IMG/VR virus record: IMGVR_UViG_3300048895_000205
Location: 1 to 54,276 of that record
Direction: 5' to 3' (one strand)
DNA length: 54,276 bases
Source of the DNA: a virus
Lineage: Duplodnaviria; Caudoviricetes
In this document: positions 12,965 through 19,885 of the stretch, piece by piece
Layout of the letters: each line of letters opens with the position of its first letter
How positions within the stretch are numbered: the stretch's first letter is position 1
Position numbers and translations under genes: made by a program
The notes under the pieces: generated by a model
The model's database searches: none
Seen by the model: only the letters and a program-made list of their open reading frames with translations
What the model was told of the DNA's origin: nothing

Positions 12965-12965
12965 G

Positions 12966-13037
12966 TGATCCAAGAAGGAGTCGAACCTTCAACCGACCGC
13001 TTAAGAGGCGGACGCTCTGCCATTGAGCTACTGGATC
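12966..13037 (-). tRNA. tRNA-Lys(CTT), CCA not encoded
   Basis: GATCCAG/TTGGATC acceptor, GCTC/GAGC D stem, CT-CTT-AA loop, GAAGG-TTCGACT-CCTTC T arm. Confidence 0.9.
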
Positions 13038-13128
13038 TTTTGACCACCATGAGCAGGCGATGGACGACCCCTTTCGGCATCGAATTGACAGTGTGCGCAC
13101 ACAGCAACCCGATGTTGTTCCGGCTTCG

Positions 13129-13201
13129 TTGCGGAGACCGGACTTGAACCGGCGACCTCTGGGTTATGAGCCCAGCGTGCTACCAACTGCACCACTCCGC
13201 G
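13129..13201 (-). tRNA. initiator tRNA-fMet(CAT), CCA not encoded
   Basis: C1:A72 mismatch, anticodon stem CTGGG/CCCAG with three G-C pairs, loop CT-CAT-AA. Confidence 0.92.
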
Positions 13202-13881: not shown

Positions 13882-15309
13882 GTGGATATGTCGTTGAAGG
13901 CCCGCATCAGCCGCTTGCCGGCGGCGGAACGGGCTGCCTGGCTGTCCACGCTACAGCCCTGGATGGTCGAGGAGATCGCGCGCGGCGAGTGGTGGTGGAC
14001 TGCTCGACCAGAACAGATTCCACCGGTAGGAGACTGGTTCATCTGCTTGGCCCTGGCCGGGCGCGGATGGGGGAAGAGCCAGGCGGGCTCCGAATGGACC
14101 GTGGAGCAGGTCCTGAAGCACCCCTACGATTCCCGCGGTACGCCGACGGAGTGGCTGGTTATCGCCGAGACGCTGAGCGACGCCCGGACGATCTGCATGG
14201 AGGGGCCGGCGGGCATCCTGAACGTCCTGGACCGTCGGAAGATCAAGCATCGGTACAAGATGTCTCCGCGGCCGATGGTCCTGTTCCCGTCGGGCACGAA
14301 GATCTACACCGAGGGCGCGGACGACGCGGACGTTGGCCGCGGGTACAACGCGGCCGGTGCCTGGTGCGATGAGATTGCGAAGTGGAAGTGGCCCAAGCGG
14401 TCCTGGTACGAGGGCATCATGCCCTCACTCCGGGCGGACCTTGTCGGCGGTCGGCCGCAGGCTTTCGTAACGACGACGCCGAAGCCGATTGATCTGCTCC
14501 AGGAGTGGCTGAAGCGCGATGACGGCACGATTCACGTCATCCGTGGTGCCACTTTCGACAATGCGGCTAACCTCAGTAGCCACGTGGTCAAAGAACTCCG
14601 CGTACGTTACGAAGGCACAATCGTCGGGCGCCAAGAGCTTTACGGGGAAATGATCGAGGGCTTCGAGGGCGCCCTGTTCAACCGGCTCGACCTGGCCAAC
14701 TACCGCGTCGTCGAGCTGCCCGATATGGTCAAGTCCATCGTCGTCGGGGTCGACCCGAGCCTCACCGGGGAAGATGACGAAATGGGAGTGGTCGTCGTGG
14801 CCCGTACCACGGATAACGATATGTTCGTACTGGCAGACCGCTCCATCATGTCCGTTGGGCGCGAGGCAGCGCTTCACGCTTGGCGCACCGTAGCCGAATT
14901 CGGCGCTGACATGCTCATCTACGAAGCGAACCTGGGTAAACGCTGGATGCACCAAGTCTTTCACGACGCGTACTTCGAGCTTGTTGGGCAAGGTGTCTTC
15001 CCAGCGCATACGAAGCCCCCCATGAAACCGATCGACGCAAAAACAGGAAAACGTACCCGAGCTGAACCAGTCGCCATGCGGAGCGAGCAAGGGCGATTGC
15101 ACATGGTCGGCTTCCACGAAAAGCTCGAAGATCAGCTTGTCACCTTCGTCGGTTGGGGGTCCAACGAGTCGCCCGACCGCCTGGACGCGATGGTCCACGC
15201 CTGCCGGTGGTTGATGGACGGCGAGAAGAAGCAGGCCCGGCTGTCCAGTCCACATGATCAGCTCTCCACTACTCTTCAGTCGCTCTGGAACGAGACGTCG
15301 TACTGGTGA
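13882..15309 (+). CDS. terL: terminase large subunit
   Basis: AGRGWGKS Walker A, AWCDEIA Walker B, VTTTP, VGVDP and SPDRLDA nuclease motifs. Confidence 0.95.
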   Translation: MDMSLKARISRLPAAERAAWLSTLQPWMVEEIARGEWWWTARPEQIPPVGDWFICLALAGRGWGKSQAGSEWTVEQVLKHPYDSRGTPTEWLVIAETLSDARTICMEGPAGILNVLDRRKIKHRYKMSPRPMVLFPSGTKIYTEGADDADVGRGYNAAGAWCDEIAKWKWPKRSWYEGIMPSLRADLVGGRPQAFVTTTPKPIDLLQEWLKRDDGTIHVIRGATFDNAANLSSHVVKELRVRYEGTIVGRQELYGEMIEGFEGALFNRLDLANYRVVELPDMVKSIVVGVDPSLTGEDDEMGVVVVARTTDNDMFVLADRSIMSVGREAALHAWRTVAEFGADMLIYEANLGKRWMHQVFHDAYFELVGQGVFPAHTKPPMKPIDAKTGKRTRAEPVAMRSEQGRLHMVGFHEKLEDQLVTFVGWGSNESPDRLDAMVHACRWLMDGEKKQARLSSPHDQLSTTLQSLWNETSYW

Positions 15310-15475: not shown

Positions 15476-15688
15476 TCAGCCGCCGGCCGGTTGGAATCCG
15501 AACTCGGCCAGTCGGCGCATGAAACTGCGCACGACCATAAGATGCTCGACCGTGCTGAGTCGGGGACACTGGACCTCGTGCGTGAGGCCGCATATGAATG
15601 CATCCTCGCGGTCTTCGTGGTCAACGCATTCGAACGTGCATCCCGTGTGATCGCATTTGACTTTGAATGCTTCCGTGACCTCGAACAT
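15476..15688 (-). CDS. hypothetical Cys/His protein
   Basis: MFEVTEAFKVKCDHTGC...; GGAGGGG SD. Confidence 0.65.
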   Translation of the reverse strand: MFEVTEAFKVKCDHTGCTFECVDHEDREDAFICGLTHEVQCPRLSTVEHLMVVRSFMRRLAEFGFQPAGG

Positions 15689-15701
15689 CGCCCCTCCAAT
15701 T

Positions 15702-15739
15702 AAAGAGGGGCCGAGTCGCATATCCGGCGACCCGGCCCC
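15702..15739 (-). terminator. intrinsic terminator closing the RNA module
   Basis: GGGGCCGGGTCGC/GCGACTCGGCCCC (G-U pair on minus only) followed by TCTTT. Confidence 0.75.
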
Positions 15740-15761
15740 AACGACTGGGTTTTTGAGACCC

Positions 15762-15834
15762 ATTCCTTTGCAGGAATTGAACCTGCAACTCTCGGTTTAC
15801 AAGACCGATGCTCTGCCTATTGAGCTAAAAGGAT
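15762..15834 (-). tRNA. tRNA-Thr(TGT) with atypical acceptor stem
   Basis: GCTC/GAGC D stem, TCGGT-CT-TGT-AA-ACCGA, GCAGG-TTCAATT-CCTGC; A1:A72 mismatch; no CCA. Confidence 0.8.
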
Positions 15835-15841
15835 TGTCGGC

Positions 15842-16003
15842 GTTGCCATCCTTGTCAACCAGCAAACATTTAAAGCCACGTCTGAGATCTACAGAGCCGT
15901 CGCTCTACCACTGAGCTACAGGGCCATGTTGGAGGCCCCATCGGGGATCGAACCCGAGACTACGGCTATCTGATCGCGACTACTCGATCTGGCTGACCGC
16001 AAC
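15842..16003 (-). ncRNA. circularly permuted tRNA-like RNA (YrlA/Y-RNA-like topology)
   Basis: order is T arm, acceptor 3' strand + TCCA, ACAT linker, acceptor 5' strand, D arm; anticodon-stem AGCCGT/ACGGCT opens into a long closing stem. Confidence 0.85.
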
Positions 16004-16126
16004 AATATTGAGTTTGGGGCAATAGATTTCAGATTGAAAGCGAGCGCCACTCTTTAGGGCGGTGTGCGCTTTACCTCATGAGATTCAGCTTGTGCCCATC
16101 CGGCATATAGCCGGAGCTTGTGACGG

Positions 16127-16870
16127 CTACGCGGTGAAGACGTAACCGAGGATCTTCTCGCCGATCTCCTGGTCGGGCGCAACCGTGGAGTTGGCGTTCT
16201 CGCGGGCGATCTTGACCGCCTCCTGGAGCTTCAGTACCCGGGCGCGCAGTACGTTCACTTCGGACTGCGGCAGTGCACCGGAGAGCTTGATGGTAGTCCA
16301 GTCGCCGACGATCGTGTCCTCGCCGTACGTCTCCACCTGGGCCGGGTGCTTGTCCGTGGCCGGGGCCTTGACGTGGTTGCGCAGGACCTTCTTGGAGCGC
16401 GTGCTCTGCGAGGTTGTGATGTAGGCGTCGTGCTCCGTGCTCCAGGTCCATTCCTCCGATGGGTCGAGCACGGGGAGCTTGGACACGAAAGTGTGCAGGT
16501 CGACGAGCTTCTTCTCCAGCGTCAGCAGGAACGTGACCGGTACATCCTTGGCCAGCACGATTCCGTCGACTGCGATGTCGGACTTGGCCAGCTGGTTCCC
16601 GTTGTCCTTGGTCAGTTCGACGTCGAACAGGCGGACGAAGGCATTGGACAGGTCGGCGATCAGGTCCCTGGCGCGGAGCTGGAGGCGGGTGCCCTCGGGC
16701 GGAAGCTTCTCGCCCTCGTCGTCACGCGGCTTGTAGGTCCGAGCGATGCCGGACAGCTTGGGCGTGGCCTGAGCCAGGTGGTACGTCGTCGTGACCGTTC
16801 TCTCGGCATCGGCCTTGGCCCCCTTGGCGACCGCGATGACCTGGTTGAGCCTGAGTGGCGTCTTCGCCAT
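16127..16870 (-). CDS. conserved hypothetical protein (LNQVIAV.KG family; recalled as DUF7873-like, unverified)
   Basis: LNQVIAVAKG, LSGIARTYKP.DDEGEKLPPE, VPVTFLLTLEKKL, ATDKHPAQV, VKIARENAN. Confidence 0.85.
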   Translation of the reverse strand: MAKTPLRLNQVIAVAKGAKADAERTVTTTYHLAQATPKLSGIARTYKPRDDEGEKLPPEGTRLQLRARDLIADLSNAFVRLFDVELTKDNGNQLAKSDIAVDGIVLAKDVPVTFLLTLEKKLVDLHTFVSKLPVLDPSEEWTWSTEHDAYITTSQSTRSKKVLRNHVKAPATDKHPAQVETYGEDTIVGDWTTIKLSGALPQSEVNVLRARVLKLQEAVKIARENANSTVAPDQEIGEKILGYVFTA

Positions 16871-17630: not shown

Positions 17631-17933
17631 ATGCTGGCGATATGGGCGTATGTCCTGATCACTCTGGCCGCGGCCCGGGTGACCCGGCTGGTTACCAAGG
17701 ATCGAATCGCGCTGGGACTGCGCAAGGGAATCGTGGCCAAGTACGGCGAAGGCTATTGGCTGGCCTACTTGGTTTTCTGCCCGTTCTGCGTCGGCTTCTG
17801 GCTGTCTTTGCCGGCCACTGTCGCCTGGATGCTGCTGACCCTGCCGCTGCATCTGTGGTGGCTGGCCGTTCCTGCTTGGCCGGCAATGAGCTATCTGATT
17901 GCACCGGTGCTGCTCAAGCTAGAAGGTGACTAA
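17631..17933 (+). CDS. DUF1360-like membrane protein
   Basis: LAAARVTRLVTKDRI...CPFCVGFW; directly before portal; TATGAT-N6-ATG. Confidence 0.8.
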   Translation: MLAIWAYVLITLAAARVTRLVTKDRIALGLRKGIVAKYGEGYWLAYLVFCPFCVGFWLSLPATVAWMLLTLPLHLWWLAVPAWPAMSYLIAPVLLKLEGD

Positions 17934-19885
17934 TGGCCTTCGGCCGGAGCAAGGACGTCGCGGTCATTGAGGACGCGCCTGTCGTTCGCGCGTCCCGCGG
18001 TACGCCTCGCTCCTTGGTCGCATCCGCGGTCCAGATGCGCATGGACGACGCCTCATACAACACGTACCGCTTTCGCGATGAGACTTGGCAGCGTGAGCTG
18101 TGGCGCCTGTATGACATCATTCCCGAGTTCGGCTACGCCGCTCGTTGGGTCGGCTCATGCTGCTCGCAGGTCCGGATCTTTGTAGCCGAGGTCGACAAGC
18201 TCGGACGGGTCCAGGGCGAGACAACCAACGAGAAGATCAACGCGCTCTCGGACAGCCTGCTCGGCGGTCCCAGCTCGAAAGCCGAAGCGCTACGGTCCAT
18301 CGGCATCAACCTGACCGTGGCCGGCGAGGCCTACATCCTCGGTCGTACCGACAACGTCCTGGACAAGGACGAGTGGTTCATTCTCTCCAGCTCCGAGTTC
18401 CGCCGGGTCCGCAACTGCGGAAACAACGGCGGTACGTGTCTTGGGTGGGGCGACAAGTACGCACCGCAGATCGTGGACCTAGCCAAGCAGGTCGTCACTC
18501 GGGTCTGGACCCCGCATCCGCAGCGCATTTGGCTGGCCGACTCACCTTCGCGCTCGTGTCAGCCGGTTCTGCGCGAGCTGGAACAGCTCACCAAGTACGT
18601 GTTCAGCCAGATCGATAGCCGCCTGGTCGGCGCTGGCCTACTGGTCATCCCCAACAACCTGGACTTCCCGCAGGACCCGGCGCAGGAAGAGAACGTCTCC
18701 TCGTCGGACACGCTGCTGATGAAGCTGGCCACGGCTGGCGCGGCCTCGCTCCGCGGTGAGGGCACGGCGATGGCGGTCCTGCCGCACATCATCGAGGCCA
18801 ACCCTGAGGACGTCGAGCGCGGCTTCCGGCTCATCGAGTTCGCCAGCGAACTGTCCAAGCAGGCCATGGAGCTGCGCGACGAGGCGATCCGCCGGCTGGC
18901 CACTGGCATGGACATGCCGGCCGAGGCGCTGACGGGCATGGGCGATACGAACCACTGGAACGGTTGGTTCATCGACGGCTACGGCATCAAGGTCCACATT
19001 GAACCGTTGATGAACCGGATCTGTCAGGCGCTCACCAAGGCCTACCTGATCCCGGCACTCAAGCTCATGGGCGTCAAGGACCCAGCCCGGTACCAGTTCT
19101 CCTTCGATACCGCCCCGCTCGCAGTGCGCCCGCAGCGACTTCAGGATGCCCTGAACCTGTACGAGAAGCGCATCATCGGGGCTGCCGCGGTGCGCGATGC
19201 CGGCAACTTCAAGGAGTCCGACGCGATGACCGGCGACGAGCTGGCCGCGAGCGAGACCCTGGAGATCGTCCTGCGTGATCCAAACCTGTATCAGAAGCTG
19301 GGTGTCCGCGAACTCATCGGCATCAGCAAGGAGATGCTGCCGCAGGACGAGTTCATCATGGCCACACCCGGCCTGGGTGGAGGCGGCCCGGGAGCACCGC
19401 CACCACCTGCGCCGCCGACCGGAATCCAGTCAGAGCTACCGCCACCCATTCCGGACACCCAAGGCGAGATACCCCCGCCGCAAGGCACGCCACCGGGCGG
19501 GGGCGGCGCGGTGACCGCCTCCCTGGCTTCCCGGGAGGAACTGGGTCTGATCGTGCTGTCCGAGGCCGCGGTCCGGCGCGGGCTTGAGCTGGCCGGGAAG
19601 CGCCTGCTGGATCGGCATAACCGTGACAGATGGCCAGACGTGCCACACTTCGATCTCCATACACGCATCCGCGTCACAGACACTGCACACGCGACCCGTC
19701 TGCTCAACGGCGCCTGGGACCAGCTCAATGGACTCGTGGATGTCTTGGATGCGGACGTAGACCCAGATCGGCTCCGTCAGTCGCTTCACCGTTACTGCTG
19801 TGCCCTTCTTACGACGGCCAGTCCCCACGTCCCGCAGAACCTTTTCGCCATGCTGCGCGCAGAAGGCCTTATTCATGGGAGCTAG
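17933..19885 (+). CDS. portal protein
   Basis: WQ.E.WRLYD..PE, R.W.PHP, AIRRLA.GMDMP.E.L.G....NHW; position in head module. Confidence 0.88.
   Translation: MAFGRSKDVAVIEDAPVVRASRGTPRSLVASAVQMRMDDASYNTYRFRDETWQRELWRLYDIIPEFGYAARWVGSCCSQVRIFVAEVDKLGRVQGETTNEKINALSDSLLGGPSSKAEALRSIGINLTVAGEAYILGRTDNVLDKDEWFILSSSEFRRVRNCGNNGGTCLGWGDKYAPQIVDLAKQVVTRVWTPHPQRIWLADSPSRSCQPVLRELEQLTKYVFSQIDSRLVGAGLLVIPNNLDFPQDPAQEENVSSSDTLLMKLATAGAASLRGEGTAMAVLPHIIEANPEDVERGFRLIEFASELSKQAMELRDEAIRRLATGMDMPAEALTGMGDTNHWNGWFIDGYGIKVHIEPLMNRICQALTKAYLIPALKLMGVKDPARYQFSFDTAPLAVRPQRLQDALNLYEKRIIGAAAVRDAGNFKESDAMTGDELAASETLEIVLRDPNLYQKLGVRELIGISKEMLPQDEFIMATPGLGGGGPGAPPPPAPPTGIQSELPPPIPDTQGEIPPPQGTPPGGGGAVTASLASREELGLIVLSEAAVRRGLELAGKRLLDRHNRDRWPDVPHFDLHTRIRVTDTAHATRLLNGAWDQLNGLVDVLDADVDPDRLRQSLHRYCCALLTTASPHVPQNLFAMLRAEGLIHGS

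Follow-up and report, generated by a model that had tools for sequence, protein, structure and literature searches.

The window analysed here is an entire IMG/VR virus record (IMGVR_UViG_3300048895_000205; Duplodnaviria, Caudoviricetes) of 54,276 bases, with a CheckV completeness of 98% and a G+C content of approximately 63%. Its minus strand carries, at 15846–16005, a non-coding RNA element with a circularly permuted tRNA-like fold, directly downstream of a gene for a protein of the DUF7873 family (Pfam PF25283). Comparative analysis revealed that the fold and the linkage to the DUF7873 gene are both properties of an RNA family whose members are found in actinobacteriophage-like viruses and also in Streptomyces-like chromosomes, where the RNA and the protein gene form a stand-alone pair. 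The explanation that we regard as probable, with moderate confidence, is that the element belongs to a large family of tRNA mimics, circularly permuted and lacking an anticodon, which are built like the bacterial Y RNA YrlA, coupled to DUF7873 and not to Ro60 (Rsr), and nicked by ribonuclease P (RNase P).

The element is a full match to R1, the covariance model of the family (model positions 1–159), and all its parts are read on the minus strand. The order of the parts is a T arm, a 7-bp acceptor stem closed by UCCA-ACAU, a D arm, and a 6-bp "anticodon" stem that enters a long irregular helix. The T arm TCGGG-TTCGATC-CCCGA (15941–15957), whose helix is 99.4% paired in the family, is separated by AGTC from the first "anticodon" stem strand AGCCGT (15962–15967; tRNA positions ~39–44). 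The 3′ strand of the acceptor stem, TGGGGCC (15934–15940; positions 66–72), pairs with the 5′ strand GGCCCTG (15919–15925; positions 1–7, placed by the sequence and the family alignment), so that GGCCCUG/UGGGGCC forms seven pairs, five Watson–Crick and two G-U. Between the two strands, U73-C74-C75-A76 can be read from the sequence at 15930–15933 (U73 at 15933, CCA at 15932–15930) and is followed by the linker ACAU (15926–15929); the predicted RNase P cut falls between U15926 (−1) and G15925 (+1). Based on the sequence and the RF02553 alignment, U8-A9 and the D arm GCTC-AGTGGTA-GAGC occupy 15902–15918 (D arm, 15916–15902). The second "anticodon" stem strand, ACGGCT (15895–15900; positions ~27–32), is preceded by a G and has no loop after it; it pairs with AGCCGT as helix 4 of the family alignment (81.6% paired, 6/6 pairs covary). 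The element contains no 7-nt anticodon loop, and the stem passes into the helix in both the minimum free energy (MFE) fold and the family covariation. CUGUAGA, immediately after this stem (15894–15888), fits the pattern of an anticodon loop (YU-NNN-RN); in the family, the consensus at this place is CU-N-AAA-N-CUGA.

In the MFE fold, the 5′ strand of the basal helix, GGTCAGCCAG (15989–15998), pairs with CTGGTTGAC (15854–15862), which is also placed by the family alignment; this helix 1 is 95.4% paired and 6/6 of its pairs covary. The internal loops hold ATCGAGT on the 5′ side (15982–15988; family consensus ATCGACC) and TTAAATG on the 3′ side (15867–15873; family consensus TTAAACG), both at least 80% conserved among 71 distinct elements, and a GATCGAG run is present at 15989–15983. 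The family's own conserved single-stranded motifs are AUCGACC (5′ strand), CUGA and UUAAACG (both 3′ strand). The earlier note on this DNA, made from the sequence alone, had described a circularly permuted tRNA with an encoded CCA and no anticodon. Every segment it listed, including the closing helix and the GATCGAG run, could be found on the minus strand by direct reading, and the permuted tRNA-like fold with its encoded UCCA and missing anticodon loop was borne out by sequence and covariation. ARAGORN and the Rfam thresholds gave no tRNA at the element, where only an 18.9-bit partial match to the tRNA family (RF00005) could be obtained. ARAGORN reported three ordinary tRNAs (Lys, Met and Thr) and no transfer-messenger RNA (tmRNA) in the window. 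None of the three encodes a CCA; the element is therefore the only CCA-bearing tRNA-like one in the window, as had been claimed.

Folding energy by itself gave a weak and unconvincing signal (z = −1.77; 8 of 200 shuffles folded equally well). The comparative evidence is decisive and confirmed a conserved RNA with a tRNA-like fold, more than chance would produce. R1 was built from 11 sequences, and in their alignment 90.9% of the cells pair, against 69.0 ± 1.6% after shuffling (0/500 shuffles reach it) and at most 43.9% in slid controls, with compensatory changes in 27/35 pairs. In an alignment of 72 distinct sequences, 93.1% of the cells pair, against 58.9 ± 0.7% in shuffled and at most 45% in slid controls; the covariation score is 0.860 against 0.216 shuffled, and double changes occur in 33/35 pairs. 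Both alignments were fitted to the R1 model, which biases these values towards the structure, and the margins over the shuffles are large. The acceptor helix is 99.4% paired in the larger alignment and all 7/7 pairs covary. The tertiary (Levitt) pair 15:48 in 71 main elements is A:U in 47 and G:C in 24, with zero exceptions; U8 is present in 71/71 and A14 in 68/71. These three features together provide strong evidence of a tRNA-like L shape.

The covariation and the 15:48 pair refute an origin by chance or decay, with the T arm of one dead tRNA gene lying beside the D arm of another, and leave that explanation a negligible likelihood. The two acceptor halves pair mutually, anticodon arms are missing, and more than 90 loci preserve the element along with the helices that flank it. 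Tandem tRNAs do yield sub-threshold YrlA and R1 matches, a caveat that is also raised for YrlA searches in PMC4201824.

The extent of the family was evaluated from both the protein and the RNA side. A first search of the viral collection with the upstream protein returned four relatives, and the permuted element was present downstream in 4/4. A specific-pattern search returned 14 stretches, which consisted of four repeats of known contigs, seven new members and three ordinary tRNA-Cys(GCA)-plus-tRNA loci. R1 was scanned against the DUF7873 neighbourhoods, 134 pattern-derived loci and one whole genome. Its 11 source sequences score 119.5–159.7 bits, and the best non-member among 134 sources scanned scores 51.3 bits over the full length; this locus (L109) was considered as a member and rejected, being a tandem of tRNA-Trp and tRNA-Asp. 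No match to an exact 25-nt string was found in the viral collection. A loose pattern of T arm, NCCA, spacer and TAGC was discarded, mostly tandem tRNAs being found among the matches listed. Among the matches listed there were also at least 528 T-arm-plus-NCCA sites, and at least 60 of them had at least 6/7 complementary positions, mostly G-U-rich chance pairs.

A profile scan of the viral collection revealed 322 DUF7873 relatives, and the phage-locus counts rest on the best 80 of these. A full-length R1 match (E ≤ 1e-7) on the same strand, approximately 120–770 nt past DUF7873, could be observed in 70/80 phage loci. These 70 matches score 44.7–159.7 bits, and the weakest were assigned to the family by position and strand as well, because their scores overlap that of the best outsider. 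Weaker or truncated matches were present in six further loci, and no R1 match was found in the other four of the 80 (L193, L194, L196 and L229, the last of which ends ~250 nt past the gene). The reverse test, which started from the RNA pattern, placed DUF7873 directly upstream in 11/11 loci with enough flank (L134 was too short); in one of them the protein has only 33% identity and the G+C content is 42%. In bacteria, DUF7873 occurred in 22/401 sampled Actinomycetes genomes, and the RNA lay behind it in 21/22 of these loci (20 full-length, one partial). In a Streptomyces-like genome the DUF7873-RNA pair stands amid SPFH, SNF2 helicase, chaplin, dehydrogenase and aminotransferase genes; such ordinary chromosomal surroundings indicate that it is a self-contained protein-plus-RNA unit there, and not prophage cargo. 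The window element belongs to this DUF7873-linked family, with 134.1 bits on R1 and a position on the same strand directly downstream of the gene, 122 nt past its stop codon. The earlier note was silent on this coupling, as it was on the absence of a Ro60 gene.

In many relatives, the space between DUF7873 and the main RNA holds a further permuted tRNA-like module of smaller size, made up of a T arm, a 7-bp stem and a D arm TAGCCCAAYGGTAGAGGC. Examples lie at L001:3844–3945, L209:2345–2402 and L149:7290–7360, and matches to model positions 49–106 occur at ~2300–2400 in many of L154–L233. The module often has its own NCCA loop (UCCACAU, ACCACCU or ACCACGU). The window is without it and has other hairpins in its place, at 16102–16006.

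Gene linkage of this kind could also mean that the RNA serves to process or stabilise the DUF7873 mRNA: a tRNA-like structure in the 3′ untranslated region would be cut by RNase P to set the 3′ end of the message, with no role in trans. A model for it is MALAT1/mascRNA, in which a tRNA-like structure cut by RNase P sets an mRNA-type 3′ end. The RNA always lies downstream of DUF7873 on the same strand, at a distance of 150–700 nt, a sub-threshold mascRNA match was present in the spacer of one relative, and no promoter-like site was found between gene and RNA, nor anywhere in 15500–16400, by a scan with the sigma-70 consensus which left actinobacterial promoters outside its scope. We nevertheless regard this role as quite improbable, for a long basal helix with conserved non-tRNA motifs would be superfluous in a mere RNase P signal.

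The closest known RNA class is YrlA. YrlA RNAs are defined by a GNCGAAN0-1G motif near the 5′ end, by a T arm, acceptor-like stem-loop and D arm, and by a position within ~4 kb of Ro60/Rsr on the same strand; they were counted in 254 bacterial species and 22 phages (Chen et al. 2014, PMC4201824). At the Rfam gathering thresholds only the three tRNAs of the window were reported. At relaxed thresholds the YrlA model RF02553 matched 15867–15988, and it was the sole non-tRNA Rfam family to match. The kinship to the Y-RNA/YrlA class put forward in the earlier note is supported by this match and by the same permuted architecture. A search with a YrlA model, which had been proposed as a check, did give the match, but at 35.2 bits, below the cut-off of 69. 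Relatives of the window element score 35.9–44.7 bits on RF02553. The 35.2-bit score says little alone, because sub-threshold RF02553 matches could also be observed in 9/14 control genomes. The cut-off itself is also a weak test, because genuine YrlAs fail it as well: the YrlA of mycobacteriophage ET08 scores 37.4 bits, and the Ro60-adjacent YrlAs, found ~1 kb upstream of each TROVE gene in four DUF7873-positive Actinomycetes genomes, score 33.0–56.2 bits. RF02553 at its threshold thus misses these actinobacterial and phage YrlAs.

In architecture, the element agrees with RF02553 in the order of T arm, closed acceptor-like stem and D arm, in the replacement of the anticodon arm by a stem of the two ends of the RNA, and in the covarying 15:48 pair; near the 5′ end it has an NCGA-type motif that resembles the YrlA one in part. 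The permuted tRNA-like domain of YrlA is accordingly present, as seen in the RF02553 alignment, the covariation, the 15:48 pair, U8 and A14. Unlike YrlA, however, the family combines an acceptor stem of 7 bp with a true anticodon-type stem of 6 bp and with the loops AUCGACC, CUGA and UUAAACG, and the element is never adjacent to TROVE but sits behind DUF7873. The 5′ motif, AUCGAGUAG in the window and AUCGACC in the family, keeps the CGA core but not the first G and the second A; it resembles, but does not equal, the GNCGAAN0-1G motif given in PMC4201824. The ET08 YrlA (GQ303260, 128197–128274) is likewise phage-borne, lies below the Rfam cut-off, and shares the same T and D arms with CTTAAACGCC directly after the D arm. 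It differs in lying beside its own TROVE gene, in an acceptor stem lengthened by a hairpin, and in having neither a CCA nor an anticodon-type stem.

No TROVE (Ro60) gene was found in 12 member phage records (G000–G011, the record of the window included), four of which are 98–100% complete. As a positive control, the TROVE gene of ET08 could be recovered, with the published YrlA ~260 nt upstream of it. None of the loci examined lies within 4 kb of a Ro60 gene on the same strand, the distance given for YrlA in PMC4201824. Among the 22 DUF7873-positive genomes, TROVE was present in 12 and not found in 10, and in the bacteria that have both, the TROVE gene lies on another contig or 68–101 kb away. 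In three genomes (G127:C12, G242:C9 and G398:C1) the DUF7873-RNA pair and a TROVE-plus-YrlA locus share a contig at this distance of 68–101 kb, which could be a conserved chromosomal neighbourhood or a coincidence. The Ro60-linked YrlAs of the four genomes have 5-bp stems closed by tetraloops. On these and on the Catenuloplanes one, R1 matches the tRNA core only (28.6–43.2 bits), and in the whole Catenuloplanes japonicus genome R1 found only the DUF7873-linked copy. The C. japonicus locus (NRRL B-16061) carries the UCCA-ACAU loop of the window element. Since both RNA classes occur in the same genomes and R1 separates them, the two classes coexist and are distinguishable.

The acceptor loop was analysed in 71 distinct elements. 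U73 is present in 56/71, C74 in 67/71, U(−1) in 59/71 and G(+1) in 66/71. NCCA stands at the fixed position in 39/71 (UCCA in 36/71), compared to ~2.6% expected from the base composition of the loop. Loops of at most 13 nt were observed in 47/71, and 36 of those contain CCA. Bacterial RNase P prefers a 7-bp stem, U(−1), G(+1) and a 3′ NCCA or RCCA. The window element has this 7-bp stem, together with U(−1), G(+1) and UCCA.

A direct precedent is the YrlA of Mycobacterium smegmatis, whose acceptor stem has seven base pairs; RNase P cuts this RNA in vivo, M1 RNA does so in vitro, and the 5′ half gains CA (PMC4201824). It is the only one with a 7-bp stem among the YrlAs reported there as tested; Salmonella YrlA and Deinococcus radiodurans Yrn1 were not cut (PMC4201824). 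The cut lies at tRNA position +1 and gives two Rsr-bound halves with a CCA end (PMC4201824), which is the two-piece form that the earlier note had proposed for the window element. Since the M. smegmatis RNA is cut at the same position, that proposal is reasonable, and a two-piece form arising by an RNase P nick is plausible; by the same analogy, the CCA-bearing subfamily is probably nicked by RNase P. Compared by its published description, the M. smegmatis YrlA differs in encoding only C74, with CA added, whereas the window element encodes a full UCCA, and in lying just upstream of rsr, a gene that is not present here (PMC4201824). The fully encoded UCCA and its conservation in the phage subfamily are what is new beyond this precedent.

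The order of the two halves raises the possibility of a decoding RNA, i.e. a two-piece tmRNA, or a permuted tRNA of the red-alga type whose joined ends would form the anticodon loop. Permuted tmRNA and tRNA genes encode the 3′ half with its CCA, then a spacer, then the 5′ half, and RNase P together with 3′ trimming frees the ends. The window element likewise places the CCA-bearing 3′ acceptor half before the 5′ half, and CUGUAGA at 15894–15888 looks like an anticodon loop. Such a role is very improbable, however. ARAGORN is able to detect permuted tmRNA and reports none; pair 3-70 is C-G, so that the G3:U70 of tmRNA is missing, as are pseudoknots; and the D arm is complete, unlike that of tmRNA. 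No anticodon loop can form, and no gene for the RtcB ligase was found in the phage. The basal helices with their conserved loops covary and are therefore retained structure, not discarded flanks. No tag reading frame was noted at the element, and no separate search aimed at one was made.

Transcription of the locus could be evaluated in public sequencing runs. Eight rhizosphere metatranscriptome runs contain part of a 501-nt stretch of the locus, and in 4/4 runs examined one whole contig of 157–161 nt, without loose ends, ran along the minus strand from 16102/16100 to 15942/15944, differing from the window at 1–3 positions. The contigs stop short of A76 by 12 nt and of the predicted cut by 17 nt. 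At face value, the RNA starts ~100 nt upstream of the conserved element, so that an upstream leader (16006–16102, minus strand) is part of it, and a stable species ends 3′ of the T arm. These stops are only a weak hint of cleavage, because true ends cannot be read from contigs, DNA can be present in RNA libraries, and the four studies may stem from a single campaign. No contig covered 15836–15941 or 16127–16200 (part of the DUF7873 open reading frame, ORF), and missing contig cover proves nothing. Contig matches in the tRNA-Thr region were rejected as phage RNA, as they had loose ends on both sides and came from other organisms. Three runs labelled as DNA (X1–X3) contain all sampled words of the stretch. 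At 15998 the four RNA contigs have A where the RNA strand of the window has G (C>T on the plus strand), and one run also differs at 15997 and 16070; the difference at 15998 looks like a near-identical strain variant.

The DUF7873 family comprises 2220 clusters at 50% identity (E ≤ 0.001). The ESM Atlas search returned only DUF7873 clusters, from Uroviricota and Actinomycetota. The predicted structure of the protein has a mean predicted local distance difference test (pLDDT) score of 95.5 and consists of long helices and a long beta-ribbon. The protein had no match in PHROGs, PADLOC or NCBIfam, a sequence-profile comparison against the PDB gave nothing below E = 0.048, and DUF7873 was not mentioned in the literature searched. 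Since its linkage to the RNA gene is near-obligate, we infer, by analogy with rsr-yrlA, that DUF7873 most likely binds the RNA.

In the explanation that we favour, the RNA would be made as a unit from ~16102 through tRNA-Thr to a terminator-like hairpin at 15707–15739. RNase P would cut 5′ of tRNA-Thr and, in the acceptor loop, between U15926 and G15925, and exonucleases would trim ACAU back to the encoded CCA. The two pieces would stay joined by their base pairs and form a nicked tRNA-like head whose 3′-CCA is free, and the conserved basal loops would bind a protein, most likely DUF7873. The particle might then be used as a tether for a tRNA-binding enzyme, as a decoy for one, or as an acceptor.

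Besides the limits of the RNA contigs, several observations weigh against this explanation. CCA is missing from 32/71 family members, and 24/71 loops are long, with an extra hairpin. Among 21 bacterial main copies, a UCCA loop is present in nine, and GCUCGA-type or other loops close the stem in the remaining 12. With so many members lacking CCA and so many loops closed, a free CCA cannot be essential to the core function of the family. On the protein side, Foldseek against the PDB gave a best E value of 0.025 and no recognisable RNA-binding fold. Its single match among predicted viral structures is unnamed, poorly superposed (E 1.6e-4, template-modelling score 0.22, root-mean-square deviation 38 Å) and uninformative on function. 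VIA-align gave a best Z of 7.9 on helical hairpins, within the stated noise of the tool. The proteins are near-neutral and not basic, with a median isoelectric point of 6.3 over 143 sequences. In addition, the CUUAAACGCC string after the D arm is common to the Ro60-linked YrlA of ET08 and the DUF7873-linked class, which hints at common ancestry or a shared ligand. TROVE is also commoner in DUF7873-positive genomes of the 401-genome sample (12/22 compared to 24/379), a comparison confounded by phylogeny and genome size; this enrichment leaves room for a link to Ro60.

The points on the loop bear on a different use of the same DUF7873-linked family, in which the RNA works uncut and the UCCA loop caps the stem, mimics a tRNA 3′ end for a partner, or is an ancestral relic. 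The members without CCA and the tight closed loops of bacteria indicate that the family can function closed, and Salmonella YrlA and D. radiodurans Yrn1, as reported in PMC4201824, remain whole. Against it, U(−1), G(+1), C74 and a strict 7-bp stem are kept where the rest of the loop varies, the NCCA frequency at its fixed position far exceeds the expected one, and, weakly, the RNA contigs end just before the loop in 4/4 runs. An uncut RNA is possible, on the unlikely side.

The points on Ro60 would fit an ordinary YrlA which the phage supplies to capture the host Ro60 (Rsr), for example to redirect Rsr/polynucleotide phosphorylase, DUF7873 being incidental. YrlA is the sole non-tRNA Rfam match, at 35.2 bits, and the ET08 YrlA itself hardly scores higher; the 5′ motif is of the NCGA type, the UUAAACG string is common with the ET08 YrlA, the strict pattern led to a single bacterial genome, C. 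japonicus, and this has a TROVE gene; the enrichment of TROVE given above also speaks for it. We consider this decidedly unlikely, as no locus lies within 4 kb of Ro60, and TROVE was found in 0/12 phage records and not found in 10/22 host genomes. Ro60-positive hosts own a different, Ro60-adjacent YrlA in which R1 matches the tRNA core only, the first G of GNCGAA is not conserved in the AUCGACC consensus, and sub-threshold RF02553 matches of the same kind appear in control genomes.

The earlier note had compared the acceptor set of the window element to that of tRNA-Cys. The letters do match, with G1-C72, G2-C71, C3-G70 and U73, and the three true tRNAs caught by the acceptor-end pattern are all tRNA-Cys genes. 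The set is not kept in the family, however: pair 3-70 flips freely between C-G and G-C (37 and 24 in the two orientations) and the 15:48 pair is of the ordinary type, so that the tRNA-Cys-like set is not a conserved identity set. We tentatively propose, as a rather unlikely possibility, a Ro60-independent DUF7873-RNA ribonucleoprotein of Streptomyces-like bacteria and their phages, in which the genome-encoded CCA of the phage subfamily, exposed by RNase P, would be charged by a synthetase that recognises the acceptor end alone (U73, G1-C72, G2-C71) or would act as a decoy for enzymes or toxins that target tRNA 3′ ends.

The large terminase (TerL) of the window shares at most 38% identity with those of cultured phages, and its matches are scattered over Gordonia, Microbacterium, Brevundimonas and other phages. 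No close cultured relative was found by TerL protein and DNA searches, the sole DNA matches being tRNA-like; the host is for this reason assigned only as probably Actinomycetota. The DUF7873 gene lies at 16127–16870 on the minus strand (PF25283, 306 bits), directly upstream of the RNA, and encodes 247 amino acids from Met21 of an ORF that extends to 16930. Downstream of the RNA, tRNA-Thr(UGU) (15761–15835, minus; ARAGORN, and 64.4 bits in Rfam) begins 6 nt past the outermost helix described in the earlier note. The intrinsic-terminator-like hairpin (15707–15739, minus), with 13 pairs followed by TCTTTAATT, closes the unit. The other two tRNAs, Lys-CUU (12965–13037) and Met-CAU (13128–13201), are also on the minus strand. 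Genes for a CCA-adding enzyme (PF01743) and for RtcB (PF01139) were not found in the phage, and among its tRNA-type elements only the tRNA mimic supplies its own CCA. The DUF7873-RNA-tRNA unit is on the strand opposite to the large terminase and portal genes, between which it lies (13882–15309 and 17933–19885, both plus). In relatives the gene order is portal, terminase, tRNAs, DUF7873 and RNA. C/A-rich single-stranded runs, CACAAGCT, CAAACTCAAT and CAATCTCAAGCT, recur between the RNA modules, in the window at 16010–16125 (minus) and in relatives at L001:3810–3960 and L002:3770–3920, where they may serve processing or binding.

The element is best classed with the Y-RNA-like tRNA mimics, as a variant linked to DUF7873. 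No prior description of the family was found in Rfam 15 or in the literature searched, which excluded subscription journals and supplements (e.g. Tables S1/S2 of Chen et al. 2014), and the DUF7873-linked RNA family is apparently undescribed. It represents a second large class with the tRNA-like architecture of the Y RNAs and a different partner gene, and through it DUF7873 gains a likely RNA context. The role of the tRNA-like domain in bacterial Y RNAs is described in PMC4201824 as an open question. The natural spread of closed and openable acceptor stems, together with the coexistence with Ro60-linked YrlAs, provides a comparative and genetic handle which separates the features tied to the protein partner from those tied to tRNA mimicry and from the added value of a free CCA. 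If the proposal of a charged or decoy CCA end is true, it would let the phage act on host translation or on defence systems that target tRNAs.

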